A stretch of 63,655 nt of DNA, from positions 554,137 through 617,791 of the forward strand of contig NW_019091360.1 in the NCBI RefSeq assembly GCF_001949145.1. Direction: 5' to 3'. Within the stretch, counting starts at the first letter, position 1, and each line of letters begins with the position of its first letter. This DNA comes from Acanthaster planci (Eukaryota). Below are positions 252 through 37,700 of the stretch, piece by piece. The notes beneath the pieces were generated by a model. The model was not told the DNA's origin. It did no database searches and saw only the letters and a program-made list of their open reading frames with translations. The position numbers were made by a program, and so were the translations under genes.

Positions 252-3200
252 TTATTTCCACTCCCCAAAGCGCTGAGGTGGTCTTTGCCTTCGTGGAGGG
301 CGCCGTCTGGAGAGTACCTCCTCAAATGACAAGTCATTGTTCTCAGTGTCTGTACTGGAGCCAGGCTCTTCCAGCTGTAGTGTTACAGGACGTTTTCTTC
401 TAAGGAGTCTGGGTAGAGGTGGGTGCCTTCTGCTGTCATTAGTGTGACCACTTCCTTCCGACTCACTCTGACCTGGCAGTTCAGTTCTTGAGCTGTCACG
501 GGACTGACCATTCTCTGAACTGGCATCTGCAAAGGCTGGCTCTGCTGGCCTCAGCTGAGATTTAGCTTGCGACTCTTCAGAGTTTGAAGTTCCCGGTGCC
601 GATACTATGTCGAATGGGCAAAGCATGAGCATGTTGCGGTGAAGAGCCTATCCGTCGGACCACATAGACTGGGATGCCCTGCTGTTTCCTCACAACGATA
701 TAGGGGTCTGTTTCCCACCTGTCCTTCAGTTTGGCTTTCCCACGCTGAGACTTGTTAGCAACAAGGACCTTGTCACCAGCCTAAGACAGGAGGATGCAGT
801 CACTTGCCCGCTGATCATACGTGGCCTTCTGCTTCACCCTGGCTCTTTCAGCTGTTGTCTGGACTTCCCGGTAAACATCATGCATGTGCTGTCTGAGGCA
901 CTGGACATAGTGGGGGTAATCGGGGTCGGGCCTTTTCTCTGCCTCGTTGTCTTGTGTTGATGGGATGAGGATGTCTACGGGTAACTTGGGCCTCCATATG
1001 AACATCAGATAAAATGGGAAATACCCAGTAGACTCATGTTGGGTGCAGTTGTATGCATGGGTCAGGACGCCCACATGCATAGCCCAGTTGACCTTCTGCT
1101 CCAGATTGAGTGTCCCCAACATTGACATCAGCGTCCGGTTCCAACGTTCCGTCGTTCCATTCCCTAGAGGGGTGATATGGTTTGGTTCGGGGCCTCTTCA
1201 CCCCAAGCAGCTTACACAACTCCTTTATCACATCCGACTCAATGGACTTGCCCTGGTCAGAGTGCAGTCTCTCCAATCCCATAATTGACCACGAATTTCT
1301 CCCACAACACCTTGGCCACAGTCATCGCTTTTTCATCTTTGGTGGGGTATGCCTGGGCGTATCTGGAGTACTGATCGGTTATGACCAGAACATGTTCATT
1401 GCCACTCTTTGAGCTTTCTAGGCTCAAGAAGTCAATGCAGACTAGCTCTAGCGGGCGTGTAGTGCAGATACTTTCCAGTGTTGCCTGTTCTTTGGGTGTC
1501 TGGCGTCTTTCTGAGTGTGCACCGTCTGCACTTTTTGATGTAAGCATGGATGTCAGAATAGAGGCCAGGCCAGAAATACCTCTCCCTAGCTTGGTGTAGT
1601 GTCTTGTTGAGACCAAGATGCCCAATCGAGTCATGAAGGTGTCGTAGCACCTGTGATCGAAGGTCTACTGGTATGACAAGGAGGTACTGCCGGCCAGCTG
1701 CATCACCACCCGGACGATGAACAAGGAGCGTCTTACCTTCAATCGGTCCCAACTCCTCAGCAGCCAACGGACAGCCCTGGTTTCTTGTCCCAGTTGCCTT
1801 TTGCATGGTCTTCTTTCTCGTATACCCTTCAGGTATATAACCTTGGAGATGGCTTCATCTCTCAGCTGTGCTGAGAGGAGGTCAACACCCTGACCAAAGC
1901 TTGTACCTGGGATGAGGTTGTTGTAGGCAGTTGAAACTGATTCATCACCCGAAATACTGGGACCTTCTCCTGGCGACGTTACTTCTTGAGCGTGCACCTT
2001 TGCTGATACCTTCTCTCCCCCATTCTGTTCTTCACTTGCCAACTTATCCTCCGATCTGTCCATCCCCACTTCATTAGTACCAAGATGCAAGATACTTCAT
2101 CCCTGACAATTCGTGAGAGTGCATCTGCATTGCCATTGGTGTGACCAGGCCGGTAGATTATGTCCAACTTAAACTGAGACAAATCGCTAACCCATAGCTG
2201 ACCATGAGCATCCAGCTTGGCCGTCTTGAGAATGTAAGTGAGTGGCTTGTTGTCGGTGACTGCTGTGACATCTTGACCATAGAGGCAATCGTGGAACTTC
2301 ACCGTTATTGCCCAATGGAGAGCTCAGAACTCCAGCTTAAAGGCAGGATACTTGGCCTCTGACGGTGTAGGGGTGTGACTGGCGTATGCTATTGGCCGCT
2401 CTTGTCCATCTTGCACCTGTATAAGAACTGCCCTACACCCATCGGCCGAGGCATCTGTCTGGACAGTGAATGGGAGAGAATAGTTAGCATAGGCAAGGAC
2501 CGGGGTTGGAGTCATTTTCTGCTTCAGTAGTTCGAAAGCTTTCTGACACTCCTGACTCCAGGTGAATGGTGGATCCTTCGTTCCACGCCTGCCTCCTATC
2601 AGGTCAAAGTGGTCCCGCAATCGAGCATAATTGTGAATGAAATGCCGATAGTAGCCAGTGAACCCCAAGAAACTACGGACATCCTTCTTGGTCTTCGGCT
2701 TGGGCCAATCCACAACGGCAGACATCTTTTCAGGGTCGGTGGCAATACCATCTGCAGACACAACATGGCCAAGATAGCGAACTTGTGACTGGAAAAAATG
2801 GCATTTGGATGAGTTTAAGCTTCAAACCATGCTCACGCAGCCTCTCAAAAACCTTTGCAAGCCTCTCCCAGTGTTCATCTACAGTACTGCTGAATATGAT
2901 TATGTCATCAAGGTACAGAAGGAGCGAGTCGAAATTCATGTCCCCAAGGGCAACGGTCATCAGCCTTTGAAATGTTGCTAGGGCGTTTATCAGCCCAAAG
3001 GGCATTCTGGTAAACTCATACAGGCCCATGGGGGACGTGAAGGCCATCTTGGATAGATCCTTTTCAGCCACCTTGACTTGGAGGTACCTGGACGTCAGAT
3101 CCAGGCTCGTGAAGTATTTGGCTTTACCAAGGGCGTCTAAGGCATCTTCGACGCGAGGCAGTGGAAATGCATCCCACACTGTCTTGGCGTTCAGCTGGCG

Positions 3201-6135: not shown

Positions 6136-7952
6136 AAACAGACAACCTTTAACCTTTACATACAAAAGTTAACATTCAGATCTTTGGTCTTGAGCCACAC
6201 TGCAGATTAACAGGTGTATTCTCGGTAGATTTTCCTGCTGCAAGGTCTTCCTTCCGTAACAAGTTCCTGAACAAGGAACAAAAAGAGCCGATGATGTTGT
6301 ATGATTTAGCCCTGTCAATTTGGATGCTGAATATTTCAGTTTTTGTCTGGCCAATAGCAATGCTTTACCATGAATTACGTTTCAGTGTCAATACTGGGAC
6401 AACTAATTCAAAGTACTCTAGTTTGGAATTTTTTACAATATTTACAATTTATTTACCAAATTTAAGAGTTTTTTCTCCTCTAAAGTCTTTGTCTCAGATT
6501 ACTTCTTCCTAGACAAAAGTCCTTGTCTTACAAAGATGAAAAACTAAATGAATTCACTGTAAAAGAAAAATAAAAATTAAAAGAAAAAAAGATTATAAGG
6601 GCCTTTTCCCGTTCCCTTCTTGCCGTACAGGCTGAGTTCCAGAGTATGGTTGTTTCTTTCTTTAAGTTAAACGTTTTATCTTTGATCTCTGTTCTTTAAA
6701 GTTACATGTGCAAGATACAAAAGTTAACATTCTGATCTTTGGCCTTAAGTCACACTCCAGATTAACTGATGTATTCTCGGTAGATTTTCCTTCTGCAAGG
6801 GCTTCCTCCAGCCATTTGATGACTTGGGCCTACATCTGTGCCAGATGGTTTTCAGCGACTGCAGTCAACAAGTTTTTTCTATCTTTTGGACCTTGCGGAC
6901 ATCTAAATAATGTATAATAAAATTCAAACTTTCCAAAATATCTGTCTTGTGATCAATTTGATTACTAGAGCAACAGATACAGTAGATCATTATACTTTGG
7001 ATATATTCTCAAAATTGGCTCAATTGTTTAAAATCTGCTTGTTAGAGGAATGCATACGTTTGAAGACTTAGTGCATTTCAAACAATCTAAGGCTTGTTTC
7101 TCCTTAGAAATTTTGTACCAGGTAATTAGCTTGGGCTTGTAAACAAATTAAATCTTTTCGAAAAAGTTAAAACTTACGATTTTTCTTCAGGTGTTTCTTT
7201 CAGGTTGAGTCTTCCCTGCCACCAAACTCCCGACGAGTGTTAATGTAGTTTTGCCCAAAAGGTAAAACTTTGGCATGCCTGCCCTGACCACTTATGTCAA
7301 GCTTTTATCAGTTTAATGCATACGGCTCCAACACGAGATAATTGTGGTGTTTCTATCATATAGCCGGCACTTCGCCTGTGACAAAGCATTGCCATTGGCG
7401 AACCAAAAACAATTAAATAACAATTCGCTGTAACAGGAAAAAAAGGTCACGGGGCGTGCGCAAAAAAGCCAATCACAATGCAAAGCCATCAGCCCTTCCC
7501 GCAGCCCCAGCACCTTGGTGGGGGGCGCTGGGCGACGAGCGGAGGGTGCACTGCCTGCATCATTACAGCCTGATAAAATTGTAGCGCCGGCGGGTCCGGC
7601 CGGTGGGGGCGCCAGCTCGGACCCGCATGGAGTTGGCTGGCTGCCACGCTCGTTGCGTTGCGAACGGCCCGCTGTTTTCCCGCCTAGCGTCTGCGCAGTC
7701 CCTGCCGCCAGGCGCCATGTTGAGAGTAGAGCTTGTCGGAAGAGCACATTGCAGTGTACGCAATAGCAATAAAGCAGAGATTTTGTGACCAGAACAGTGA
7801 GTTGCACCTGAGTGTCGTTCTTCACAGCGTCGAACCCTGTTCAGCGGGACACGCTACATAATTTATCCTCGACTCCATGGGCTGCGAGCGCGTTCCTTCA
7901 CGAGCCCTGGCCGTATACGTAGGATTCGAAAATAACGCTGATTGGCTGTTCA

Positions 7953-8097
7953 AGTAGTTGAGAGCGGTACGCACAAGACCCACCCCACCTTCAATCATCG
8001 TCCCCCAGTTTAGCACAAAATACCAAAACTAAACCACGGCAAAATCGAAACCCTCCAAACCCCTGCGACCAACTTTTAAAAATTTTTATAAAGCCAT
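7953..8097 (+). repeat. Left terminal inverted repeat
   Basis: AGTAGTTGAGAGCGGTACGCAC...CCACCTTCAATCATCGTCCCC...AAAGCCAT is the reverse complement of 19170-19310, with scattered mismatches. Confidence 0.93.
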
Positions 8098-8152
8098 TCC
8101 ACCCTCGGTAATCCGAGAATATCTAAAACCATCTCGCTCTTATAAAACCCAC

Positions 8153-8246
8153 GTTTCGATTTTGCCGTGACTTAGTTTCTGATTACCGCGAAAAGGGACG
8201 ATGATTGAAGGTGGGGCGTGTCTATTGCGTAACGCTCTCAACTACT
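8153..8246 (-). repeat. Internal inverted copy of the terminal ~95 bp of the TIR
   Basis: GTTTCGATTTTGCCGTG...GGGACGATGATTGAAGGTGGGG...GCTCTCAACTACT is complementary to 7953-8051 and is a direct repeat of the element's right end. Confidence 0.88.
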
Positions 8247-8332
8247 AAGGTTACAAAAGAGACGATGCTTTTGGTCTGGAATTACCGAGTAAAAATGAGA
8301 CAAATCTATGCCAAAGCCGGAAAAATCAGAAC

Positions 8333-9082
8333 ATGTCAATCCAAGTATACATCGTTTCAGACGACCACGAGCATCTCAATGCCGACAACTGTGACCCCAA
8401 CGTCACCTATGGCCCTTTTGACCCGAGTAAATTAATCATTTCAAAACCCGTGATTAAAGAAGGCACCCATGTGAGTCAATGCAGTTCGCCCATTTTTACC
8501 ATCACAACGGCCAAAATAAATTGATTATGACGATAGAATCCTGTTACGGCATAAACCAGCTTTACAAATATGGCACTCGAGATAAAACGCCAGAAAATTT
8601 AGTGGGTCGGCAAATTTGCTATCAAATACAACAACCTACGACAAACATACTCGATCACATAAATTTGGCCGTTTATAGGTTTATCGAATCTCAAGAGTCT
8701 AATCTCCCGTCTAATATCGTAAACGCCTGCAAAGCCAGTCGTGATATCAATGAATTGAACAAGATCGAATATGAAGTTAAATCACCTTACACGGCTAAAA
8801 ACCAAATGTATGTTAAAAAAGATCCCTATGCCTCTCTATTTGATCACCAAAAAAAGACCCATCGACTCGTCAAATATCGATAAATTTATCAATAAGAGAT
8901 GCGACGCGCAATCATTTATTTGTCCAAAAGACATATACTACGGTACCCACGGTTTGTTGTCTTGCGGCGCCAGCGTTCGGTATAGAGTGACAGCAGCAAT
9001 GTTGAAAATTAGAAACGACGGACTAATTTCAAAGAATTCGGCGTTGCAAGCGTTTAGCATATCTGAATCTTCCGTGGAATAA
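8333..9082 (+). pseudogene. Candidate ssDNA-binding protein of large-DNA-virus type (DUF2738-like), two frameshifts
   Basis: ORFs 8333, 8479 and 8771 join into ~250 aa: FDPSKLIISKP...LIMTIESCYGI...LVGRQICY...IYYGTHG...GASVRYRV. From memory this resembles iridovirus-type DUF2738 proteins; not verified by search. Confidence 0.45.
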
Positions 9083-9142
9083 GAAGTCGATTCAATTACA
9101 AATGAATTGAATTTTAATTTCTTGTGTAATAAAAGTCGACTT

Positions 9143-9180
9143 AACCTCTGTTATTCTTCGGAATAACTGGGGTTGTTTTT
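9143..9180 (+). terminator. Stem-loop with a cTTCGg tetraloop and T-tract downstream of the first viral ORF
   Basis: AACCTCTGTTATTC-TTCG-GAATAACTGGGGTT followed by GTTTTT, in the intergenic gap. Confidence 0.45.
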
Positions 9181-9223
9181 ACGTCAGTCTTTCCTTAAAT
9201 AAATAAACAACATATAAATAACA

Positions 9224-9672
9224 ATGACATACGCAGAGATTTGCCACCTACTCGGTTACCAGAAAAAACGTGCGAACACGACATATTTGAAATAGGCGAA
9301 AGCTATGTATGCCGACATTGCGGTCTAATTTTTGAGTGGGTTCCTTCATACACCCCTGAAGAGATAGGATACAGATATTACTATCATCAAGTTTGGAAAA
9401 AACCCTCCACGAAAATCAGAGAAGATTTTGAGAGAAATAAACATTGAATTGCCCAGTGAACAATCGAGCATAGAATACGTGTTAAATCGAGTTTTAGATG
9501 GTAAGATATCTAGAGGTAGACCGTTGAAGGCTTTAATTGCGGTATGTTATCAAAAGGCAACCGGGGAGGACGATTTAAAAGTAAAGGATTTGTTTCAAGT
9601 TTCGGATAAGTATTGGAAAACGCCCTCGACAAATTAAACCTAGCCAAACAAGATTTTTCAAAACGTATATAA
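9224..9672 (+). pseudogene. TFIIB-like protein (Zn ribbon plus one cyclin-like repeat), frameshifted
   Basis: CEH-x9-VCRHCGL zinc ribbon followed by a helical region with ISRGRPLKALIAVCY (compare the TFIIB RGR...IAAACLY motif). Spread over ORFs 9241 and 9428. Confidence 0.65.
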
Positions 9673-9739
9673 TAGAATAGAGACTCACGCATTTTACTTG
9701 ACCAAAAGCGAGCAGGCGTTTATAAGGCAATAAATAAAT

Positions 9740-10243
9740 AAAAGTCAGAAAAGTAAGCTTTCTCCTCGGTTACTTTAACATTACAAAATCCACCGAAATC
9801 GAATGGCAAAGTCAAATGGAAGGAAGCCCCGCAAAAAGAGCTCCCGATGGAGTTAGACCAGCAATACAGGCTGACTCACTAATATGTTATTAACACGGAT
9901 ATTATAGAAGCACTTGAACTGATAGTACCGTTTTCAGATTTGCAGATGGATACTTTGGTTCTGTTTTACGACGTAATAAGAAACTACATTCGAGCTTACG
10001 AGGCGGGTACTTTAGAAGAATTCCGTGTCTCAATTAGTCAAAATAGGCCTTGAGAATCAAATCAGAACGTTAACAAATAAACGTCCGGGATCAGACAACA
10101 AGACAGAAAACGCGTTAATTTATTTAATACTTTTAACTCGAGGTCAAGTCGATACTTACAAAGAAGCTCGCCACATTGCTTTAGAATTTTTTCAAGAGCG
10201 ATTTTTAGGCGACGAAGGGGTTTTCCAACGTGGATTGGTTTGA
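9740..10243 (+). pseudogene. Unidentified viral ORF remnants
   Basis: Coding-like stretches (IIEALELIVPFSDLQMDTLVLFYDVIRNYIRAY; ORF 10025) between the TFIIB-like and penton-like genes. No motif recognised. Confidence 0.3.
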
Positions 10244-10887
10244 TTTTATCTTAACCGCCATTCCGGGTGTGAGTTTTAAAGTTCACGAAAAGTCAAATTT
10301 GGTAACGATAATGATAACTGATTCAAATCTCAGATTAAAGTTGGGTAAAGAGGTCGGCAAACTTTTAAATCTGCCAAGAGGTAGACTCGTGCCAAACGTG
10401 ATTTATAAGGGGAAGATAGATATAAATCCTTTTGACAAGCTTTGGATACACTGCCGAGAAATAAACGACAATTTTAACGACCTTAGTACGCGTTGTGTAC
10501 CGCGCCAGACTTGAGCAAAAGCGTTAAAGGGTGACTTTGTCTATTACCAACCACAGCCTTAAGTTGCGGCTAAATAAGCAACTGGCTAACTTATTAGATC
10601 TGCCAAAGGTTAAACGTTTACCCCTTGTCATTTATGAAGGCAAGTGTGATTTAAACCCCTAGAAATTTGTGTTTGTACATTGCGCCCAGTTGAATACCGG
10701 TATCAATTTTTATAACGGCAAATCTTCGGATATGTTGAGCGTTTTCGATGCCAATCATAAAGATAAAACGCCCAAAAGTTTAAGTGACAGAAACATCAGT
10801 GAATTGACCTTTTCTTTAAAAGACAAGGGAGGAGAACTAGTAGACAACAAAGGCGCTGAAATTTTAATCGGGCTAGACATTTTTTAA
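10200..10887 (+). pseudogene. Minor capsid protein (penton-like single jelly roll), disrupted
   Basis: FVHCAQL...NFYNGKSSDML...ISELTFSLKDKGGELVDNKGAEILIGLDIF* matches the typical C-terminal strands of Polinton/PLV minor capsid proteins. Confidence 0.65.
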
Positions 10888-10907
10888 AACGCGTATATAA
10901 TAAAAAG

Positions 10908-11562
10908 ATGACTACTAACATTTACCCAGATTTGACTTTAAACTCGGTCGAACAATCAGAAACCAAAGTCTACAGACTCAGAAAAATCGAAGAAATCAAA
11001 TCTCAAATCCAAAGAGAACGCGACGCGCGGGAAACTAGCTACAAGAAGATCAAACGGGTACTCACCGCACTCGGCTACGTGGAGTACGGGGTAGAAGTGC
11101 TGGGCGCGACCTCGGCAGCCGTCGGCGTTTCCGCAATTTTAGGCGTCGTGACCGGGCCTGTCGGACTTGTAATGGAAGGCATCGCTTTCGGTGCGTTTGG
11201 TGCCTACGCAGCGCTAAAGTACGCCACTCGCCGTTTAACTCACAAAACAAAAAAGCACGATCAAATCCGCGTACTTGCCGATGCTAAATTAAACACGATC
11301 GAGGAATACGTATCTCACGCAATTGAAGACGGTGACATATAGCAAGAGGAATTTGTGTTGATCTTATCTGAACTAAAAAAGATTAACGAAATGAAAGAAA
11401 AGATCAGATCGAGTACGTCTACAAAACTGCAAGCGAGCGAAGCGAGCTCGACGAATAAAGAAAAAGAAATTCAAATGTCAAGTAAACGAGAGAGCAGAAG
11501 CGCTAGCCAACGAACATGCGACGGTTTTTAAAAAAGATCTTATGAAAAAACTTGGCGAGTAA
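10908..11562 (+). pseudogene. Coiled-coil protein with a long Gly/Ala-rich hydrophobic hairpin (membrane-active candidate); in-frame stop at 11340
   Basis: YRLRKIEEIKSQIQRERDARE, then a ~55-aa hydrophobic segment (VLGATSAAVGVSAILGVVTGPVGLVMEGIAFGAFGAYAAL), then KKHDQIRVLADAKLNTI. The frame continues past the stop (QEEFVLILSEL). Confidence 0.6.
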
Positions 11563-11674
11563 GTTTAACCAAGTCGGTTAAGTACGAAGTGAGCAAAGCG
11601 AGCGAGCCACCTGCTTATCAAGCAACCCAACCAACGGTACCTCCTTTAAAATAAAATAAAGACGTTTAAAATAA

Positions 11675-12955
11675 ATGGGAGCCAACTTTAGTCATTTATC
11701 AATCGTAGTCGATAAGGACAACTCGCCGAGTTTCCAAATTTAATGCACGCGTATAAATTACCAAAAGTCACCACGGCAAAGCCGTCAACCGCTGGGTTAC
11801 CGATCCAATTTCGATTTAATTTTGCGGTCTATTGCGCGACGACGGCTTGTGGTGTGGGTTTTGATTTGCTGTCTGATCCCAATCCACACGTGTCGGCTTT
11901 ATTCAATTTTCACGTATATTATACCGTACAAAAATGCCCAATTCCGAGCGACAACGTATTTGACGCGTTACACAATTATTACGATCATCGGAAGTTTACA
12001 GACACTTGTCGTCTATTTAACGTCGATTCAAACAAGTTGTTTAAACAAACTCGTGACACTTTGTCAAACGGATTAGGCACTGCTTATTATTACGACAACG
12101 GTTACGTATCTGTCCCTAATAAAAATTATGATGCATACGACTTACACCTCTCCAACGGCAAATACGCGGGATCTACTTACATGGGCTTTGGCTGGGCTAA
12201 ACCACCTAAAGGCTTGGGTCATGCGAGTACTTACACGGTCAATTGGATTTCACAGTCGGACGCGGCCACTTTGGCCTGGTGGGATTTCATCCTAAAAAGA
12301 GTAGCTCGACGGACGTGGGGATCACCAAGGTAAACGAATCCATTAGGGCTTACGGATACGAGTTACACGGTGCACAAGCTCAAACCAAGACCAGCGTTTT
12401 GGACACCGGCACCGGATTAGACGCGCAACGGCAATTTATTACGATCGTGGAATCTTTAATTAATTCAGCCCCCGATCTCGAACAGTCGATATATCAATTT
12501 CAAGATTCGTTGCTATATGCCAAAATGCCTTTAGACTTTGTAGTCGCCCCGGGGTTATATTTGGTGCCCTCGGATATGGACTTACGCATCGGTACGTATG
12601 AAGGTTACAACAGTAATGTACAAATCACGACTGCGGATATGACGACTGGTTACGTACCGAATTTAAATTTAAGGCCAGGGGTTAAGATGATTTTGCGGGT
12701 GAAGCAAGCGAAGCGAGCAAACCAAAGCAACCAGAACTTTCACCCACTCAACCAAAGCAACCAGAACTTTTACCCACTCAACCAAAGCAACCAGAACGTT
12801 TACCCACTCAACCAAAGCAACCAGAACTTTTACCCACTCAACCAAAGCAACCGGTACCAGATAAAAAACCATTAGACATACATAACGAAGAGAAGTTATC
12901 TTTAATTATAGGAGCTATCACCATAGGTGTCCTCCTGTATAAAGTATTAACTTAG
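11675..12955 (+). pseudogene. Predicted myristoylated, C-terminally anchored viral protein with a Pro-rich repeat stalk; frameshifted
   Basis: Starts MGANFS (MGxxxS). Core has NFAVYCATTACGV, FHVYY, INESIR-like, GAQAQT, PSDMDLRIG. After a frameshift it reads (QPKQPELLPT)n and a terminal TM LSLIIGAITIGVLLY before TAG. Confidence 0.6.
12719..12853 (+). repeat. 30-bp coding tandem repeat, ~4.5 copies
   Basis: Unit AACCAAAGCAACCAGAACTTTTACCCACTC; encodes QPKQPELLPT in the frame that runs into the TM tail. Confidence 0.9.
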
Positions 12956-12985
12956 AATAGACGAAAAAGTAAAAGGCATTAAAAA

Positions 12986-13017
12986 AACGCTTGTTCTCCA
13001 CGTGGAAAACAAGCGTT
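12986..13017. terminator. Palindrome at the convergence of the plus- and minus-strand gene blocks
   Basis: AACGCTTGTTCTCCACGTGGAAAACAAGCGTT, one mismatch, lying between stops at 12955 (+) and ~13034 (-). Confidence 0.5.
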
Positions 13018-13033
13018 GAAATTTTTTTGCCTA

Positions 13034-13473
13034 TTATAAAACGGGTTTACGTTTTTCGTATAAAAGGCAAACTACATAACCGACCACTAAAAATAAAGTC
13101 CACAGGTGATCCGCTATCCATCCAACCGCTTTACTCACCACGTTAAATATCCAACTCAAAACGCCACCGATGATTCCAGGCAATTCAAATAAAAAATATT
13201 TGGGTCTTTAATTTCTGTTTCGTAATCAGTTTCGTTGTACCGCTTTTCGATCTCTAAACCACCATATATTTCTTCTTCTTCGTTTGTCCCAACGGTAATA
13301 GGATGTGCAAAATCAGGGTCTTCTAACAACGACGTTTCATTTTGGTCAGTACAGGACGTTTCTGTTTAGGTCGGATTAAGTATTAAGTCTTCCCAAGCCA
13401 ATTTCAAGTCTTGATCGGTTTCTTCTTTGTTCTCTAGTGGTATTTCCCAAAAATCAAATCCTCCTTCGGCCAT
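13034..13473 (-). pseudogene. Viral protein with acidic N-terminus and C-terminal amphipathic/TM helices, disrupted
   Basis: MAEGGFDFWEIPLENKEETD... then LPGIIGGVLSWIFNVVSKAVGWIADHLWTLFLVVGYVVCLL. Confidence 0.55.
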
Positions 13474-13521
13474 TTTACTTTAACTTTAAAATAAACGATT
13501 AAAAAACCAACTTTACGGTTT

Positions 13522-13766
13522 TTAAGTGGTTGGTAGACTCGGGGAAAATATCCCTTGTGACACGAGCCTACCCTGGGTAGCTAACGCACCGCTAGACAGG
13601 GCGGTCAATTGTAACGCGTCTTCGATTGCAAATTTATTGAAATCTGGCGGTTTGATTTGAGCTTACTCGACAACATCGCGTAACCCATACAAAATCCTTA
13701 AAGTACAGCACCGTGATAAACCGTATTGGCGATTCCATTTAGGTCGATTGATTTAGTGTTACTCAT
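13522..13766 (-). pseudogene. Small hydrophobic viral protein, frameshifted
   Basis: MSNTKSIDLNGIANTVYHGAV ... IKPPDFNKFAIEDALQLTALSSGALATQGRLVSQGIF; preceded by TTAAAAATG. Confidence 0.45.
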
Positions 13767-13790
13767 TTTTAATATATAGTATCTTTAAAT

Positions 13791-14164
13791 TTATTCCATA
13801 TCTAAAACTTCAGGTGTTTGTTTTTTTGGTTGAACAGTTTGTAAAGGTGTTGCTTGAACTTTTATAGGCGTCGATTTATTTTTCCACATTAAATATAACG
13901 CGACTGCACCAATCGCTAAACCGCCCAGGATTAAATTTCTATTTTCGGTGACCGTTTCCTAAATTTTATTTCCAGAGCTAGCTTCGCTCACTTTTAATTT
14001 CGCGAGTTGCTGCTTCATCTTTCTGTTATGCTTGGCTAGTTTCTTACCCTGTTCTATGCGTTTTGGATTTTTAACTTTAGTTACTGTTGCACCTGTGTCT
14101 TTACCGGGCTGTTCGTCGGCGTTGATGCTGGGATTGCTTTGCTCGCTTCTTCTGTTGTCGACAT
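13791..14164 (-). pseudogene. Basic coiled-coil protein with one TM helix, one in-frame stop
   Basis: KNPKRIEQGKKLAKHNRKMK followed by LILGGLAIGAVALYLMW. Confidence 0.55.
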
Positions 14165-14199
14165 CTTTTATAATAGAAACGTTTTATTTATCGATAGAT

Positions 14200-14643
14200 G
14201 CTTAGTTGTAATTGGCGTGGCTACCAAGGGCGATAAATAGACCCCGTATTTATAGCAAATCTCGCTTAGGAAATGACTCATTGTTTGACTTATAATCGGA
14301 TCGTTATTTAGATTTTTTGTCAAATCTTCTTCGGAATTCAAATTGATATTAAACCCGAGGAGTTCGACTGGAGTGGCAATGCCTAGTAAACGTGCGTATA
14401 AGCTTAGAATCGCATGGCCAAGTGTATTTACAATTTCTCTGCCGAAGTGTGCTTCATACAGGTTAAAAGCTTTTCTTGATCTTTTGGAGTTAGGGCTTCA
14501 ATTTCTTTTACAGAATATTCTTTACTCAGGCATTTTTTAGATTCCCAAGATGCCACTATTGAGCACAAGCGATCTCTTACATTGGGTTTATTTTCGGTCG
14601 ATTCTGTTTTTGGCTCGTTGAGAATTGATTTAAAATCTTCCAT
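14200..14643 (-). pseudogene. Helical viral protein of unknown function, frameshifted
   Basis: ORF 14428-14643 continues in another frame as YEAHFGREIVNTLGHAILSLY...DLTKNLNNDPII...ICYKYGVYL. Confidence 0.5.
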
Positions 14644-14866
14644 TTAAATATATGGTTTTTAAAATTGTTGAACGTATGTTTACAGTATAAATATTTAAAC
14701 CTGTAATAAGTTAGATTAGCTGCGATAACTAGTTGGATAACTAATTGAACTAATTGTAACATTGCTTCTATTTAATTATAACAAAAATAAATAAAAACAG
14801 CTATAGCCAGACTGTAACAACAAAGCTATAGCAAATGAAACAAATAAATAACTAGTTAACATTAGC

Positions 14867-15520
14867 TTATACGTCTGTTGACTCGGGTATCATATTGCAC
14901 TTACGCATTAGGTTACACCTACAGCAAGCCAACACGCAATTCCATTTCACGTGCCCAAAACCCGTGGGTAATCTTTCGATCGTTGCCTGGTCTTGTCTTG
15001 GCTCGATATATTACAGTTTTACGTTGCAGTCGTTGTAATAACAAAACTCATGAGCGTCAACCATTTCTCGGGGATGAATAAGTTATATTTCTTATCACAT
15101 TGTTTAGAAGTATACAACCAACGATCAAAAACAAATTTTGCTGCGATATCTTTGCTTTTTATGAGGGCAAACGCCTGAACCGTTACACTGAACACAATAA
15201 TATCTTTGCTTACCGTGAATACACATCCCAGCACCATTACACTGAACACAATAATATCTTTGCTTACCGTGAATACATATCCCAAAACCATTACAATCAA
15301 CACAAAAATATCTTTGCTTACCGTGGATACATATCCCAGAACCATTACATTCGACGCGTGCATTTTTTAGTTTACCATGAATGCATTTACGCCGATTATT
15401 AGAAATTTTTGCTGCGGCGTTATAACTGATACATCCAGCGCAGATTTTACCACTGTCTGTAACTTTGAACGAATCCAATCCATTTAATTTATGGCAGCGA
15501 TTACACGTTTTATTCTCCAT
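14867..15520 (-). pseudogene. Cys/His repeat protein fused to an HNH (His-Me finger) endonuclease domain, frameshifted
   Basis: Four to five 18-aa repeats CIHGKQRYYCVQCNGxGI (54-bp tandem at ~15140-15390). After a frameshift: CYYNDCNVKL...ATIERL..GFGHVKWNCVLACCRCNLMRK. Confidence 0.7.
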
Positions 15521-15555
15521 TTAAATTAATATTACATTAATGCATTTTATCATTT

Positions 15556-16185
15556 TTACCGAATGACATAATTCACCGGCGGCTCAGTATAAAAAAAATC
15601 AATTTACTGAACTTCACGTCTCGAAATGCTTTTTAATTTCTTCCCTTTTTTCATCAGGTACGACATCGTTTTCGGTTAAACACTGGTCAAAGCTGTTACG
15701 ATCTTTCCAATGAAACAAAGCGGTCCACGCCGTATTTTCGCGGTAGTCTTTGAGAACCAAATTATATATCTGAGTTAATAGCCAACAACTATGATTATAA
15801 TGACGCCCTAAAAACGCCATCTTACTTAATGCGCATACATTGCTCCCTTTAGATCTTTTAAGATACTTAATAATTTGATCTGAAGCACAGTCGTCGATAA
15901 TAAATAACGTATTTACACCGTCAAATTATTTTTGATAAGGTTCAATCGCTTTGTTTCATTATAGTCGTTCCCGATCTAAATCGCATGGAAAAACGTCGTC
16001 GTCTGTGTAAATCCATAGTCAGTCCAAATAAGTTTTATTTTAGACAACATGGGACAAATAATTACGATAGCTTCAAATGTGAACCTATATTCGGTTTCTA
16101 GAAGATCTAATATCCAATTAGTTTTCCCGCTGCCCGTCTTACCGATGATTAAAGCGCAGTGTGGCTTCTTGTACATCTGGTTCAT
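15556..16185 (-). pseudogene. A32-like (FtsK-HerA superfamily) genome-packaging ATPase, disrupted
   Basis: Walker A LIIGKTGSGKT, Walker B LFIIDD (~15890-15910), arginine-finger motif GRH and LLTQ. Confidence 0.88.
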
Positions 16186-16199
16186 TTAATTTAAACGCT

Positions 16200-17454
16200 T
16201 CTTAATAAACCCGTAGACTTTAAAATTTCCGTCTTCTACAGTCAATTGAGCTAAAAATAAAAATAAAAAAAATACGTACATCATCAACGGACCCGCGGTC
16301 TCTGCTTCGCGTTCCATCTGTATCAAAATACCTCCTCCGCCCCGAGCGGCCTACCCGAGCCATGAGCAGATTTATCGTCAGAGCTCCTGAAATCGAGCCA
16401 CAGACCATACTTATCTTTTAGACATTCGGCCATATCAACCCCCGTTAAATTTAGATCTTTTGCAACTGCGCGAGCCGATTTGGTGTCCGAGTCGCCGAGG
16501 TATTTGTTGACTTCGTTCCAGTGTTGGTATTCAAATAGCCCTTGTGAGTAGAGCTGGATGGGTTTGCCTTCGACCGTGACGACCGTTTTAGTTATATTTC
16601 GTTGCAGATTTTTGACCGCGGGATCTTTGAACAAAATCAAAACGCCTTTCAAACTCTTGATCGTTTGGTCGATGCTGATGTTCCATAACGTGTCTGACTT
16701 ATTAACCGCCTGTTTTTTCCAAGAATGAATTCTGTTAAATAAGTAATAGACGGGGCCTCTATGTTTGGCCTGCAGGGCCTGCGCCAAATCTCGATTGGTG
16801 ACGACTTCATATTCTAAAGTCAAATCCGAAATTGAGTACTCCGCAGCCTTGTCTGACGAGTTAACCATTTGATTGTGCCCGTTAAACGTTAACTGGTACG
16901 TCAGAGGCTCTTTAAAATCCGACGGATCGAAAGGCCCATTATCCGTATCTAAAGGAATCGCATATCGATTTTTAAAAGTGTCGGCGATCGCCTTATCTTT
17001 ACCGTTGTTCGCGGCTTCGTTTTTATCGCCCGCGTTCAAACGTAACTTAGTGACGTTTTCTCTTTCTTAACTAAAATAAGCCATATTTTTCGTCTACGAC
17101 AGAGGTAGCCAATTGCCCTTAAAGTTATGAAACACGTCCGCGTCTCGGTAACTGACAATTTTATTGCCTTGTAAGCTTACATTGATTTCTGAAAGCAGGT
17201 TTCGCGCTACGTTGTTATACACGGTACGGTTATCGTCGGATGCACCGTCTAGATCGAGTTGAAAGCCAGTTTCGCGGTACCCGGCATGATGACGTCATCC
17301 ATGCCTAAAGCGGGGAATTTTATGTTTAACGTGTGACCCACAGCTATGGTGCTCGGTTATGGGTGACAGTTACTTCGCGTCTTTTGCCCTTAATCACGCG
17401 AGGTACTTTGAGCCTGCGACTCAGGTTTATTTTTTTCGTGTATTGTTGCGACAA
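16200..17454 (-). pseudogene. Major capsid protein (double jelly roll, Polinton-like virus type), disrupted
   Basis: ~410 codons adjacent to the ATPase. Beta-rich motifs: VTVTHNP.TI, IKFP.L..DDVIMPGTAKLAF, RYAIPLD, YSISDLTLEYE, SLKGVLILF, VTVEGKP.QLYSQG, YGLWLDFRS...HGSGR. Fold assignment rests on size, context and recalled similarity. Confidence 0.75.
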
Positions 17455-17483
17455 ATTTCTTAATATGTACGATTTATGTTTTA

Positions 17484-17633
17484 CGTAAAAATTTTAAAGA
17501 GAAAAGAAAACGCAATAAAGGGTATGCTGGCTGCGAAAAATAGATCTTCATTATTTTGCTATCTAAACGTTTCACTCTGGTGAACGTGACCGGCTTGAAT
17601 TTCTACCAGTTGATTTTTAATTTCGGTATTCAT
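17484..17633 (-). pseudogene. Tiny ORF remnant with a C-terminal hydrophobic segment
   Basis: MNTEIKNQLVEIQ...LFFAASIPFIAFSFLF; divergent from the ORF at 17658 across a 24-bp pure A/T spacer. Confidence 0.3.
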
Positions 17634-17657
17634 ATTTTTAAATTATATATTTTAAAA

Positions 17658-18084
17658 ATGGCTAGTATTGCAATGATGGTTGGAGGAGCTAAAGTAAACG
17701 CCCTGGCATTTACGGGCTAGATTTTTTTATTTGGCAGTTTATCAAAAAGTAAAGTCGACGAAGAATGAAAGCGTCAAGATCCTGGCGATAGAGCAATTGG
17801 TGCAGGCAAAACAAGAGTGGGAGCAAAACCGCGTTCATATGTTAGATTTTTTAAACGAGCAAATGCGACAAGAACGCACGAGTCAGCAAACATTTGTAAA
17901 CGTGGACGAAGCGTTACGAGCTTAGAGCGAATTAACCGGTAAAAAAAAATAATGCCGCTGCCGCCAGAGCCTAAAATACTCGATTTTTACGCACCTTCGA
18001 TCCGAGGATCAAAAAATTCGCAAATTTATATGGATTATATCCGGGACGGCTTTAGTCGGTTTCTTATCTTATCGATTTGCGTAA
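17658..18084 (+). pseudogene. Viral protein with N-terminal hydrophobic helix, coiled coil and C-terminal TM; disrupted
   Basis: MASIAMMVGGAKVNALAFTG ... LAIEQLVQAKQEWEQNR ... PPEPKILDFY ... IWIISGTALVGFLSYRFA*. Confidence 0.55.
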
Positions 18085-18096
18085 CTTTATTTTAAA

Positions 18097-19110
18097 ATGG
18101 AGCGAGAATTTTCAAAATTATTTTACAGCTCACAGGGTTATTGGCGGGGTGAAAGTTCGGTCGATCATCTACACGTAAAGACGGGTGCAGGCAAATCAGT
18201 TATTAGAAACTGGCTAAAAAAGCAAGCCGTTTGGCAAATATATTTACCCGCACCTGCGTACGTACCGCGACCAATGACTTTGCAATCGGAATCGGTCGAA
18301 CCTAATTATGCGCATCAAATAGATATATTATATTTACCCTGGGATTATGTTGAAAGAAAAACGTTTAAACACGCTTAGACCGTGGTAGACGTAGGTTCGC
18401 GATATAAAGAGGCAGAACCGTTGACCAGCAAAACCGCCGAGCAAATGTCTGAAGCCGTGAAACAGATTTATAAAAGATTGCCCTTCACTTGGCGCAAAAT
18501 TATAATGGTAGACTCTTGATCTTTATTTAAAGGTGAGTTTAAAAAATTAATGACGAAAAATATAGAGTAGAAATTCAAGTGGGTGAGCCGGGCGTTCATA
18601 GGTCGTAGGGAATCGTGGAAAGGTTTAACCGTACTTTGGCTGAAAGGTTATTCGGTCATTAATACGCTCAAGAAATGTTAAATGTGGATGAGCGAAACGT
18701 AGAATGGGTAGAACGTTTGCCTCAAGTTGTAAAATCGTTAAACGACGAAAAAACGCGTTCAATCGACAAAGAGCCCGCAAAAGCTATCAAATTAGACCGA
18801 GTGAAGCAAACACCTAGTGCACCTCCCAGAGTTGGCAAGCGAGAATTACCGCCAAGCGTGGTCGTTCGGTACCTCTGTTACGTACCCGGGTGAGCAAGAG
18901 GGTGGAACCGTCAGAAGAGTGACCGATCCAATTTGGTCCGTGGACGTTTATCAAATTGAAAAACGCACGAAGCAATTTAAACGAGTAAATGGCAGGCGGA
19001 TAAAAACGGGTCCTACTTTATATTATTTATTAAACGGGCCAAATAGAAGTTTCGTCAAAGAGGAACTTCAAGTCGAACCCGAGGATACAGAATTACCGCC
19101 CGAGTCTTAA
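18097..19110 (+). pseudogene. Retroviral-like (rve, DDE) integrase of Polinton type, with stops and frameshifts
   Basis: HQIDILYL (D), TVVDVGSRY, IMVDS..FKGEF (D), GIVERFNRTL (E), W...LP.VV..LN, and C-terminal PIWSVDVY / YYL / RSFVKEELQ. Confidence 0.92.
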
Positions 19111-19169
19111 CTGCGCAAAAACCGAATTGAGGACTTTTTCTTTGTCTTAAAAAATTGAGTTGTTCACCC

Positions 19170-19310
19170 ATGGCTTTAAAAAATTTTTAAAAGTGGGTCG
19201 CAGGGGTTTGGAGTGTTTCGATTTTCCGGTTTAGTTTTGGTATTTTGTGCTAAACTTGGGGACGATGATTGAAGGTGGGGTGGGTCTAGTGCGTACCGCT
19301 CTGAACTACT
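19170..19310 (-). repeat. Right terminal inverted repeat
   Basis: Reverse complement of 7953-8097; ends GAACTACT and is followed by GTTCA. Confidence 0.93.
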
Positions 19311-21584
19311 GTTCAGGGGGCGTTTTCGAAACCCCAGTCTCCCGGGACTCACGAACAGTGTTCTTGGGTCGTTGATTACGAATGCTTAAGTGCAAATGGG
19401 GTGCAGCTGCGTTGAAAGTCAAGATAGCAGTCGCCATTTTAACACTAAATGAAAAGATGGCATGACATTTACCATCCCACATTAAATAAAATTCCTAAAT
19501 GTCCATATTAATGGTCAGGGTAAATTTTCTCCGACAGCCATGAGTATTTGCCTTGGGTTCAAGTTTATTTTTCTTTGTGAGTGTTTCCTATTTTATCTAA
19601 CAAAACCACCATTAACTTACGGTATGTGCCTATATCCACCATCTTTGTTCTTGATGTTCTTCATCCACTCCCCAGAAAGTGGGGAGTGAGAATCAAAGAT
19701 CTCATAGCGCTGTACAATCTTTGGTGAGAATCTTGTTCAGGAACAATGTTCGCGTGTTGATCCCCTTTTGAAACCCCGTTCTTGTGTTCGTCAAACACAA
19801 GAATGGCGTAAATCTGCGTCGCTCGAGCTCGTTAAAACGCTGACTAAAGTCCTTATTTATTATCCACCCCGAGCTGAAGTGCACCCCCAATCGGCGAAAG
19901 TAGGACAGGTGGTTATAAGCGGGTTCTTGCACGCGTTCTGCACGTACGCAGAGACCATACATGCCGAAATAAATTAGTTACGCGTACTCATCGTGCTCCG
20001 CATCAAACTCGCATATACTTCCGCGCCTGATGTCGCGCCTTACCAAAATCACGCCCTCTTTTGTTCCCCTCGGAGCAGGTGCAATATGGGGGGGGGGTGC
20101 GTTCCATCAAATGGTTGTATTGCTGCGCGCGAGCTCCTAATATTTTTTGATCCCACGGTGTTTTACAATAAGACATGCCATAACCAGGAGGCATCATAGA
20201 AATATTTCTATGAATCACGAATTTTGGACTGACAGATTCCAGTTGGAGGTATTTCTTTCGCCAAAAGCCCCAAATAGCAGGCCTATTTTGGATAGAGGCG
20301 GGCGGCTACATTTAGAAATGAGCGCTTAGTTTTATGCTGTTTGGGGTATCTTCCTTGAAAGGCGAATAAAAAAGATTTTCGTGGCTAAGCCCAATAAAAT
20401 TGAAACGAAGAGTGATCTTCTGGCCATAATCTTGAATTTCCAGTAAAAAAAAAACGGAGGCAAATTTCTTCACGAGAGTCACCAAGCGACGCTATTTTGG
20501 TCCGATTTGGCACTGGCGCGTATTTGGTTTAATGCACCTGGGCCGTTTTCCAATACTCAATCCGTCTCAGTCGCAGGCTTCGTTCCCAAAACCAATTCCC
20601 CATTGTGGGCCTGAAGCGTTTAAATTACATTGAATTGCTGTAATTTTTGGCTCTCTTTCATCTTAGTTGATGCTTTGTGGCACTATTAGACTAATAACTG
20701 AGCTTACAGCTTTAAAGTCATCTAGTAAAAAACAGTTGAAGCCGGAGCCGAAAGTGAATATTGGAAGACGACCCTGGGGTTAATCGCGCAAGGCATGGTA
20801 GGAACAAACATGGCGTGCCGAGATCATTCCCATGGAAACGAGGTTGGGCTAGGGTTTTTTTTACCGTGGGGACGAGGTTTTTCAAGGATACCATTGATTT
20901 CCCTATTAAAATATATGGGCTTGTTTCTGCACACCAGTTAAATCAGTGATACTGACTTGTACCCAGAGACAATCTGCCGTCAATGGGCCGTCTCTTACGC
21001 GCGTGTGAACAGCAAGTACAAACTCTGGGAACGCGTACGATCAATACATGGATGTTTCACACATGCAAAGTACATGTACATGTAGTACAATAGTCCTGGG
21101 CAAGTTACTAGGCCAGGAGTAAAGTGACCCCGTGACGTTTTGCGAATCATCGCGGCACGAAAGTGGTGAACTACCATGTAGACCGACGTTACCGACATGT
21201 GTCCTTAAAGTGTTGTAACTTTCTTCAACAAGGCTATTCAAAATCAAGTGTAAGAAATGCTGATTAATCATACCTAGTTTTGATGGAGGCAAAATGAAAC
21301 TTTGGCCATGAGTTTGTTGGTTGTATTCTTAAGGCTTTAGTTTACGCTACCATATCCATGGTATGTGGGCCGGCTTTTTAACTAACGTAGTACTGGCATG
21401 ACTGGGTCATGCTAATCATGCTAATCGTCAACGAGCGTAAACAAAGCGTTAACAAATTATTCAAGCATTTGTGTGAAGAAATGTGGTATTTTTTAATATG
21501 ATGAGGCTCCTGAATATCCTATTCAATATATCACATTTATCTCAAGTAATGTTTGAATGTGGAAAGTAAGCCGACAAAGTAGGT

Positions 21585-34700: not shown

Positions 34701-37700
34701 ACTGGTGGGATGTCGGCCAAGTTGGCATACTCGGACGACTCGGCCAGCGTCATTATAAGAGCTCTCCTCAAGAGATCAGTAGGCGGGTTGAACTCACAAA
34801 ATTATTGTTATTTACTGTCTCCTGCAGTGGCACAGCAAATCAAATGTGAATCTACAAACAACCAAGATACATGTACATGTAAGGTGTACTTATTTCCTAC
34901 TGACGGGCACTTTTATGCATAAAATCTACCAGCTTCGTAGTTTTTTACAAGAGCATATTGACAACACAACTGATTGGGAAGATGCTAAAAGAAACATGAG
35001 TGCGCATGCGAGGAGTGGGTGCTCTGAGGATGGGAGGTGATCATGTGACAGGGTTGTTTTGTTCTTTAAGCACAACTCAGTGGGGGTAAAAGGAAGCATC
35101 CTTTAAGTGTGTTGAGGCAGAAGGCCATTTCAAGAGCTTTAAAATAATGTCAAAAGTTTGTTAACCTGTTTCTCAAGAAGTAATTGACTGCTTGACATAA
35201 AGTTTTAGTTCAGGGGGTTTCTCAAGGAAGCAGCACACCAAATTTTGTTTTTAATCCATGATGGTCAGTTCCAATAGCATGTTGAATTTACCTTTTTCTA
35301 TTAAACTTCACGTACTGTTTACCTACATGTACATGGTTATGTGTTCTGTAAATGACATGATGTGTATAGCCCAAATTTTTCAATTTATGCCGGATGATGT
35401 AGGTAAGCGATGCTCAATTTAGTCATGTACATGTTGCACTGAACAGATATAACTTGGCGGTGACCAAGGTGTTGGGCGAATCTGACCTACTTCATTCACA
35501 ATGGTCTAGCCCGTGCACTGTGTATAGGCCTAGTTGTGCATGCCTTCTGCTTGTGTTGTGTTAATACTAATAGTCACAATGTGTACAGGTACATGCCTCG
35601 AGACCTGTCTGCAACCCAACTCTTTGATGGGTTTGTCCCAAGGCAAGCTCGGTGGTCGAGTGGTTAAGACATCTGCACTAGTAANNNNNNNNNNNNNNNN
35701 NNNNNNNNNNNNNNNNNNNNNNNNNNNNNNNNNNNNNNNNNNNNNNNNNNNNNNNNNNNNNNNNNNNNNNNNNNNNNNNNNNNNNNNNNNNNNNNNNNNN
35801 NNNATATATAATTAGCAGTGAAAGTCATTATGGTTATGACAATACAACCCACAATGACATCCCCTTTCCACTTGTCAGTTTGCCACATTGATCATGTTTA
35901 ATAAACACCAGTAGTAGTACCATCCGTGAAGGAACGCTGCAGTAGTGGACCGTTGCACCATTGGTGAAAGTTTTTATCTCTCAGTTTGTCCTGTTAAATG
36001 ATGGGCTTCCACAATTTATTCATGATTCGGTCCTCGTCGCCCACAAAATTTGAATGAAGCACCAGTAAACACAATAAATTTCAAGAAAGCTACAATCATT
36101 CGCTGTCTCAATCGTTTTGTATTTGGATGTTGCTAAGATGTTGCTGTAAGATGTACACTTTGTCAGGTGTTATTTAAGGGCACATGATACATTTAGATCC
36201 ACTAAAATGAATCATTCATATTCTTGGAAAGCTTGCTGTTTGTGATTGGCTCCAGATACACGTACATGTAAGTTGTTGATATTCGTAGTAGTACCCAGCA
36301 TACCCGTATGTCCTACGGCCCCAGAAATTATCCAAAATGGGATGAAAAAATAAAGACAGACATTAAACCCAGATGTTACTGATCCAACAAGGCAGTCTTT
36401 CAACTCGATGGACCATCCATGACATGTAGATGTACATGTGTATGTATGTGAATGCGTTGCACTACTGCACTGTACTGTACATTTATGTCCAGTCTGTCCA
36501 CATACATTGTAGCTTACGTGAAGCCCTATAAAGTGCAAAAACTGCCTTGGACAAGGCTAAGTCTCTCTTAAAATGCAATAATGGGAATCTGCTGTATTCT
36601 AAGCCATATTTTGAAGCAAGTATCAGTAGAGCAAGTTTAACTATGCTGTACGTTGGAATCTTTTTACTTTGTGTAAATTATATTTGTTCGCTCTCCCGTG
36701 TAAAGATGCATTCATGACAGAGTTGTCCTATCGGTCAAAATCAGTCAAATGGCTCCTATGTGTGTGTGTCTGTGTGCTGTGGCAAATCAAGTGGAAGGAA
36801 CTTTTGACTATCTCTCTGTTGTAACGTAAGGATGGCTAATTTTAATGTCAGTAAATATTTCATTCTCTTTTGGTACTCTGTTTCCACCCAACAGGATCCT
36901 CAAGGGATTGCCACATCTCCAGGGAGAGCTGGTAGCAGTTTATTTCCAACTATGGCACAAAAGAGTCCCCCAAAGTCAGACACGGTGTCTTCCACTGATT
37001 CAGTGTTTCCATTGAGGCCACACGACATGACAAGATCGGAAGCTGCACAAGAGAGCAGTTTATCTTCTGAGAGTAATCGGTTTCTGCCAGATATTGGGGG
37101 AAAATTTCCGAACTTGGGGTCTGTTGCCTATGCACATTCTAAACCTATGTTGGAAAAGGAAATGGAAGAGTTTGAAAAGCTCATGCACCTGGAGGTTGTC
37201 CCTGATAAAGCATCAGATGAGCCATGTCTTGATGGTTCCTCTCTCTCTGATGATAAGCAGCCACATGTAAATATTGGGGATCAGTGTATACATGCTCTTA
37301 ATGATCCTTTTGTCTCTGAATCAAATCCTAAAAAAGACTCGGCTGAAGTAAAAACAATTATTGATTCAAAGACAGCTGAAGAAAAACTACCTATATCAGA
37401 GAATGAACATGAAAACGAGCGATCAGAAAGAACCAGACAGGAACAGTCAGTAACAAAACTTAGCACATCACCAACTGAAGTCACAGAGACCGAAAAAAAG
37501 CCAGCATCCATCCTAAATAGAAATATGAAATCCAAGATACCAGAGAATATGATGTTGCCCAGATCTTTAAAAGTAAATAGTTCTCCTGTAGACAAACTGG
37601 CAAAGGACACTAAACAACTTTATACAGTTGCAACAAGACGATTTGGTGTTGACAAGGAATCTTCATTGGCCAAGAGGTCATCCAAGCATAAAAGCAACCT

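Follow-up and report, generated by a model that had tools for sequence, protein, structure and literature searches.

TFIIB brings RNA polymerase to promoters. In the canonical protein roughly 65–70 residues, which form the reader and the linker, lie between the zinc ribbon and the repeat, and G-R...A-A-C-L-Y is a recognizable motif. Polintons, a group of virus-like transposons also called Mavericks, typically duplicate 6 bp of their target. As far as the parts of the publications covered here go, TFIIB-type factors are a marker of giant viruses carrying their own RNA polymerase. The literature searched on Polintons, Mavericks, virophages and Polinton-like viruses yielded no description of a TFIIB. 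The preliminary description of the locus studied here had likewise set TFIIB down as typical of giant viruses and foreign to Polintons, and the portions of the literature that we covered agree with it.

We analyzed a stretch of 63,655 bp, further referred to as the window, in which a TFIIB-like gene lies inside a Polinton-like element. The DNA of the window looks eukaryotic and is interrupted by three masked N runs. Outside the element it contains fragments of a retrotransposon pol gene on the minus strand at 1665–3179 (RVT_1, E 2.3e-21; RT_RNaseH_2, E 1.2e-23). It also has an open frame of 1207 codons on the plus strand at 36832–40455, which is rich in S, T and E, has no Pfam family at E ≤ 0.001 and probably represents a large exon for a disordered protein of the host.

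The carrier element

The element occupies positions 7953–19310 and is an 11.36-kb insertion with terminal inverted repeats of approximately 135 bp (92–96% complementary) and a 5-bp target-site duplication. The duplicated pentamer GTTCA can be read directly at 7948–7952, and the same five bases are found at 19311–19315. The left terminal repeat (7953–8087) starts with AG; 83 nt of it at 96% and 52 nt at 92% are complementary to the right one (19179–19310). The left end has an additional peculiarity. Within 7953–8246 the terminal repeat is followed, some 100–190 bases on, by an inverted copy of itself, with positions 7953–8004 pairing with 8195–8246 at 90% and 8026–8051 with 8153–8178 at 92%; this end resembles a mini-element of about 294 bp or a hairpin made of two terminal repeats.

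One gene of the kind known from Polintons and two further probable ones were recognized. An A32/FtsK-type packaging ATPase is encoded on the minus strand at 15617–16185 and is split by a frameshift: its N-terminal piece (15979–16185) matches PF04665 (Pox_A32) with E 3.5e-5 and 23.8 bits, above the cut-off of 22.8, and a Walker-B-like piece was found by eye at 15617–15925. The gene at 16323–17294 (minus strand), interrupted by two in-frame stops, encodes a probable double-jelly-roll major capsid protein. This 247-residue ORF has no sequence match in Pfam or PDB; the assignment comes from ESM Atlas features (score 0.96, 197 of 256 shared), which link it to a cluster with PF04451 (Capsid_NCLDV) on 66% of its members. 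On the plus strand at 18097–19107 lies the gene of a probable rve-type integrase, which contains in-frame stops and changes of frame; its read-through with X (P0031) gave a sub-threshold match to PF00665 (rve; E 2.8e-3, 18.3 bits, cut-off 32.6).

A Pfam scan of 19 ORF pieces retrieved no protein-primed family B DNA polymerase, no TBP-like neighbor of the studied gene and no adenain-like cysteine protease, though a diverged or broken protease gene could escape such a scan. No ORF of the element is longer than 250 codons, and no RNA polymerase gene was found in it. The preliminary description had assigned the locus to a small Polinton-like element, and the terminal repeats, the A32 ATPase, the Capsid_NCLDV features and the sub-threshold rve match bear this out.

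The element was covered at 90–99% likeness by contigs from sequencing runs of three organisms. The summed depths of these contigs exceed that of the least-covered stretches of the element tens to hundreds of times, and therefore the element family is a genomic repeat. The copy in the window is decayed as a whole, since its ATPase gene is frameshifted and its capsid and integrase genes carry in-frame stops; the breaks in the TFIIB-like gene described below belong to that decay.

Several further features of the element were recorded. The gene immediately upstream of the TFIIB-like one (8249–9082, plus strand) would encode approximately 270 residues in three frame pieces and has no sequence match in Pfam or PDB, its piece 8458–8883 having none in PDB when searched by itself. 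A Cys-rich ORF of 131 residues on the minus strand (15125–15520), without a Pfam family at E ≤ 0.01, contains 3.2 copies of a 54-base repeat (15177–15349) that encodes C-I-H-G-K-Q-R-Y-x-C-V-x-C-N-G-x-G units. At 12720–12852, the C-terminal end of the gene at 11743–12875, there are 4.4 copies (97%) of a 30-base tandem repeat encoding N-Q-S-N-Q-N-F-Y-P-L units.

The motif T[TA]AAATG is found at the ATGs in positions 16185(−), 15520(−), 14643(−), 18097(+) and 9692(−), the genes concerned including those for the ATPase, the Cys-rich protein and the integrase and one without an assignment. Of the nine ATGs in such a context, five open ORFs of at least 60 codons, compared with 29 of all 257 ATGs (p 0.0012, the test having been chosen post hoc). 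The motif recalls the poxvirus late motif TAAATG.

Structure of the mini-TFIIB gene

Positions 9224–9672 of the plus strand form one gene in four frame pieces separated by three frameshifts. Piece 1 (9224–9268) comprises the start codon, ATG at 9224, and the first 13–15 residues or so; its frame closes at 9293, and 8 of 14 residues are identical to the N-terminus of the relative P0002 (pairwise E 1e-4). TATAAAT at 9213–9219, in an A+T-rich stretch 5–11 bases upstream of the ATG, may be a promoter element. Piece 2 (9259–9402) belongs to a second frame, open from 9199 to 9447, and covers the zinc ribbon and the conserved stretch as far as W-K-K, as seen in alignments with relatives. The four ribbon ligands are C at 9271, H at 9277 (in C-E-H) and C at 9310 and 9319 (in C-R-H-C-G, 9310–9324), the complete C-x-H...C-x-x-C-G motif spanning 9271–9324. 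The frame of the start codon reopens at 9368–9637 and provides piece 3 (9404–9612) with the basic linker and cyclin-box helices 1–4, including SRGRPLKALIAVCY at 9509–9550; the alignment with the relative P0003 spans the break between pieces 2 and 3. Then the second frame reopens at 9610 and runs to the stop codon at 9670–9672, the end of the gene. The two long pieces cannot be separate genes, since there is no ATG in either of their frames (9199–9447 and 9368–9637).

The gene is more than a chance pattern. A profile built from 11 database relatives, the window protein being excluded, was compared with 2730 six-frame segments of the window. It matched exactly pieces 3 (E 4.9e-19, profile positions 49–124) and 2 (E 1.9e-12, positions 2–53), the runner-up having E 3.9. 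Piece 4 (9613–9672) has no significant match by itself in its 20 residues (9613–9669). We infer that it is the last stretch of the gene, with the final cyclin-box helix and the stop codon, because the relatives have another 15–20 residues after the part aligned with piece 3, the second frame stays open to the stop at 9672, and contigs of other element copies differ in length from the window copy at 9614.

The breaks are located at approximately 9257–9270, at approximately 9397–9406 and somewhere within 9610–9637, the first two of them within or adjoining runs of A. The preliminary description had correctly joined the C-x-H...C-x-x-C-G ribbon and SRGRPLKALIAVCY into one gene; in place of the two frameshifts that it put near 9245 and 9435, the three listed here were found. 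In contigs from public runs that represent other copies of the element, the length differs from that of the window copy at 9258, as seen in a contig of run X1, and at 9614, as seen in high-depth contigs. Assembly error was considered as an explanation and would fit the first two breaks, which lie at runs of A, but this copy also has in-frame stops in its integrase and capsid genes, and these show real decay. Hence the window copy of the mini-TFIIB is a pseudogene: it is dead and does nothing here. One RNA run placed 76 reads on the element, 74 of them partial and mostly at 90–95% likeness, with zero depth over 9052–9435; such cover is not usable as evidence on expression.

Intact relatives

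Pieces 2 and 3 read through with X at the break (P0001) were used as a query for an exhaustive phmmer search against 1.84 billion representative proteins of any length. Four proteins were retrieved at E ≤ 0.001: P0002 (115 aa, E 1.5e-17), P0003 (145 aa, E 1.1e-12), P0004 (137 aa, E 2.2e-11) and P0005 (109 aa, E 1.9e-4). The alignment of P0003 covers query residues 9–125 and thus crosses the break. All four matches are 109–145 aa long, although no length limit was set. A profile search added five relatives (P0006–P0010), and cluster look-ups added near-identical members, including P0011, which is labelled 'TFIIIB Brf1 subunit/TFIIB' by its database source. The intact relatives form a small family of proteins of 137–150 aa.

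Among the ribbon-bearing relatives, the first knuckle reads C-x-H in P0002, P0003 and P0004, and C-x-x-C is found in P0003, P0007, P0008 and P0011; in P0009 the first knuckle is degenerate. A Y...K-K-P-K-P-P-K-type stretch is conserved between the ribbon and the repeat: the relatives are only 33–38% identical, yet this linker motif is retained. The family also possesses a G-(K/R)...A-V-C-Y motif. One branch (P0007, P0013 and P0025) has some 80–90 additional N-terminal residues before the ribbon, giving forms of 204–231 aa; the extension may represent a genuine domain or result from reading through an upstream ORF.

As for the genomic context of the relatives, viral contigs contained no match to the 12-member family alignment A3, to P0008, to P0004 or to the capsid piece of the element, and metagenome contigs contained none to the A3 profile. 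The sole metagenome locus found with P0011 (L001) was rejected as a false match, the contig being G+C-rich and bacterial-looking.

Similarity to TFIIB in sequence and fold

Nine relatives were scanned against Pfam. The TFIIB zinc ribbon family PF08271 ranks first for P0008 (E 1.5e-4, 21.7 bits), P0003 (E 9.7e-4, 19.1 bits) and P0007 (E 2.4e-3), and the TFIIB repeat family PF00382 is the sole Pfam family for P0004 (E 2.5e-3, 18.2 bits), with residues 63–131 aligned to positions 19–88 of the 92-position profile. At E ≤ 0.05, PF08271 is found in three and PF00382 in one of the 12 members of A3. The gathering scores are 29 bits for PF08271 and 23.6 bits for PF00382, and the best scores, those of P0008 and P0004, stay below them. 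P0002 matches only other ribbon families (E 0.05–0.1), and P0005, P0006, P0009 and P0010 have no Pfam match. The window's own pieces and their X read-through gave nothing in Pfam, NCBIfam or PHROGs, and the family profiles A1 and A3 retrieved no TFIIB from PDB sequences at E ≤ 10. Searches with single pieces were negative as well: the C-terminal piece had no match in a word-index protein search, in either its 'longer' or its 'near' mode, and no lead in the ESM Atlas (best 0.79), and no phage record matched the ribbon piece in tblastn. Matches of the window pieces to C2H2-finger and PII sequences in PDB were dismissed as chance. Judged by the letters of the proteins, the TFIIB signal is weak but consistent.

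The fold was predicted with AlphaFold2 for P0003, the closest full-length relative, from the shallow alignment of 12 sequences. The mean pLDDT of this model is 75.1, and that of the helical domain, 73–89; the read-through of the window gene alone gave 51.7, too poor for a fold search. The predicted structure has a three-stranded ribbon (strands 11–14, 19–22 and 28–31) and helices at 37–47, 57–64, 71–88, 96–109, 115–122 and 126–140. Thus its layout is a ribbon, a short basic linker and a single five-helix cyclin box (57–140), and approximately 25 residues, including helix 37–47, separate the last ribbon strand from the first core helix.

When the model was compared with PDB by Foldseek, rows 1–29 contained nothing but chains from initiation complexes of Pol II or Pol III and TFIIB/Brf2 entries (probability 0.54–1.00), aligned over 139–197 columns, and the first unrelated match was in row 30; no match reached E ≤ 1e-3, the best having 4.2e-3. 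TFIIB or Brf2 is named in the titles of 4bbr, 4bbs, 3k1f and 4roc, and the remaining initiation-complex chains in these rows are presumably TFIIB or Brf. In BFVD, the collection of predicted viral structures, four matches at E ≤ 1e-3 were obtained, with Marseillevirus TFIIB as the best (E 2.7e-5, 21% identity), and proteins named TFIIB from marseille-, mimi-, irido-, asco-, pitho- and phycodnaviruses occur throughout the top 25. In VIA-align, run against 48,161 chains, the top rank went to a chain of a Pol III initiation complex (Z 9.1, with 130 aligned residues in the range 5–144 of the model). Human TFIIB follows with Z 8.8 and rmsd 3.0, residues 56–144 of the model being superposed on residues 119–206, that is, on the first repeat, and archaeal TFB has Z 8.3. 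Scores on a par with these, Z 8.0–8.7, were obtained for cyclins A, B, D3 and F and for Rb. Of the 13 rows with Z ≥ 8.0, six are TFIIB-family chains and seven are cyclins or Rb. With only the cyclin box to go by, TFIIB is not distinguished from cyclins and Rb. The helices of the predicted structure form a cyclin box, and it is the arrangement of ribbon plus cyclin box that singles out TFIIB/Brf; at the level of the modeled fold the TFIIB signal is clear.

Both the ribbon and the cyclin box have their best matches, by sequence and by fold, in TFIIB/Brf, and calling the family TFIIB-like is supported for both parts. Membership in the canonical TFIIB family is not supported, since there is one repeat, a short linker and only sub-threshold Pfam scores. 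The four-ligand N-terminal ribbon is present in the window itself, and the cyclin core of the P0003 model superposes on TFIIB, TFB and the Pol III initiation-complex chain with Z 8.3–9.1. A second cyclin repeat is absent: five helices follow the linker, the relatives end at 137–150 aa, the window gene has its stop at 9670–9672, and the ORF pieces downstream of it have no PF00382 match. A full-length B-reader/B-linker is absent as well, given the approximately 25 residues of the model, and one repeat with so short a linker may be too little for TFIIB-like activity. These results agree with the initial reading of the letters as a TFIIB-like protein truncated to a single cyclin repeat, which is backed by the Pfam leads, the P0003 model, Foldseek and VIA-align. 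As to the TFIIB or cyclin-fold match anticipated for the repaired protein, Pfam gave none for the read-through, and Foldseek gave one for the model of P0003. The suggestion that the element acts through this TFIIB fails for the window copy, a pseudogene; what is supported for the family is the TFIIB likeness.

Proposed function and alternative explanations

The reading that we favor, with roughly even confidence for and against, is that 9224–9672 is a frameshift-broken gene for a ribbon, basic linker and one-cyclin-box protein of 137–150 residues in an 11.4-kb Polinton-like element, and that intact members of the family are likely nuclear, element-encoded transcription initiation factors. The cyclin box would be placed on A+T-rich promoter DNA bound by TBP, immediately before the element genes, and host RNA polymerase II would be docked by the zinc ribbon. 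A nuclear import signal may be provided by the conserved, lysine-rich K-K-P-K-P-P-K-type stretch. Because only about 25 residues link the ribbon to the cyclin box, the polymerase would probably be recruited without the start-site (scanning) and DNA-opening functions of the TFIIB reader and linker. The intact protein would most likely work on the host machinery, since the element, which is without a polymerase gene, has inserted itself into a nuclear genome and reached many copies in it; intact relatives would likely let the elements steer the host transcription machinery to their own genes.

The same architecture could serve an opposite end. A mini-TFIIB that keeps the polymerase-docking ribbon and the TBP-facing repeat and has neither reader/linker nor second repeat could form dead-end complexes and so act as a decoy or brake that dampens transcription of the host or of the element, for instance keeping the element latent or shutting off the host. 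The single repeat and the modeled spacing of approximately 25 residues between ribbon and cyclin box suit such a role, and truncated TFB paralogues reportedly act as modulators in archaea (TFB3 of Sulfolobus). However, nothing sets it apart from recruitment, and the conservation of the linker motif across relatives that are 33–38% identical fits an active role equally; we consider a decoy unlikely. A protein that is not a transcription factor, in which a zinc ribbon is joined to a cyclin box of the generic kind, with a cyclin-dependent kinase or some other molecule as its partner, as in viral cyclins, or which is a small DNA-binding regulator, would be consistent with the tie of cyclins A, B, D3 and F and Rb with TFIIB for the helical domain (Z 8.0–8.7) and with every sequence match being sub-threshold. 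Yet the whole-length match of ribbon plus cyclin box is seen only in TFIIB/Brf chains (139–197 columns in Foldseek, rank 1 in VIA-align), and both independent Pfam leads are TFIIB families in the right order, which makes this explanation improbable.

Improbable as well, in our judgment, is a virophage-like mode of life, one of the options in the preliminary description, where the mini-TFIIB would engage the RNA polymerase of a co-infecting giant virus. It draws on the best fold matches being TFIIBs of giant viruses (2.7e-5 in BFVD against 4.2e-3 in PDB) and on the start codons of several element genes lying in T[TA]AAATG (post hoc p 0.0012). But a ranking of folds is no demonstration of descent, the motif does not occur more densely within the element (0.40 per kb) than outside it (0.36 per kb), the linker is conserved, lysine-rich and resembles an import signal, and the element is a genomic repeat of high copy number that is integrated and flanked by a target duplication, as expected for a nuclear transposon. 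That the locus consists of chance ORFs in junk DNA and never was a gene might be suspected from the three frame breaks, from the long pieces without an ATG and from an RNA run without usable cover. This is practically out of the question: it is refuted by the window-free family profile, with E 4.9e-19 and 1.9e-12 at consecutive profile positions, and by the existence of intact relatives.

Should the intact members indeed be initiation factors, a broader and more tentative proposal can be made, namely that a lineage of polymerase-less, half-size Polinton-like elements, present in many copies in eukaryotic genomes, uses a stripped one-repeat TFIIB as its own initiation factor, which would be enough to bring the host polymerase to A+T-rich promoters abutting the start codons. 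It would be the smallest working factor of the TFIIB type, and through it the transcription kit known from giant viruses would be tied to the Polinton-like elements related to them; we regard this as possible but rather doubtful. If true, virus-like transposons too manipulate the first step of host transcription, and a natural minimal TFIIB of ribbon, short linker and one repeat would be available for asking which parts suffice for polymerase recruitment. The finding also bears on whether giant-virus transcription genes already existed in small Polinton-like relatives.

Comparison with known systems

In the window, the TFIIB-like family with its single repeat is represented only by a pseudogene, carried by a Polinton-like element that has no polymerase gene. 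The element is similar to Polintons/Mavericks and Polinton-like viruses in having terminal inverted repeats that start with AG, a short target duplication and an A32-type ATPase, and may also share with them a double-jelly-roll capsid gene and an rve integrase, both of which are probable here. It differs from them in its length of 11.4 kb, about half the usual size, in a target duplication of 5 bp instead of the typical 6 bp, in that the searches retrieved neither a protein-primed DNA polymerase nor an adenain-like protease, and in the TFIIB-like gene, which has no description for such elements in the literature searched.

Among TFIIB-like factors, those of Nucleocytoviricota (marseillevirus, iridovirus, ascovirus and mimivirid proteins and the homologue of ASFV C315R) are the best fold matches, with E from 2.7e-5 to 1e-2 and probability 1.00. 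In the matches listed they are 230–430 aa long, compared with 137–150 aa here, and their carriers own an RNA polymerase, whereas the 11.4-kb element is without any polymerase gene. Cellular TFIIB, Brf1, Brf2 and archaeal TFB have about 300–350 aa and combine a PF08271 ribbon with two PF00382 repeats, in contrast to the one repeat in proteins of less than half that length here, and the G-(K/R)...A-V-C-Y of the family stands where TFIIB has its own G-R-type motif. The likeness to them lies in the N-terminal zinc ribbon, where C-x-H or C-x-x-C precedes C-x-x-C-G, and in the predicted cyclin box, which superposes on the first TFIIB repeat.
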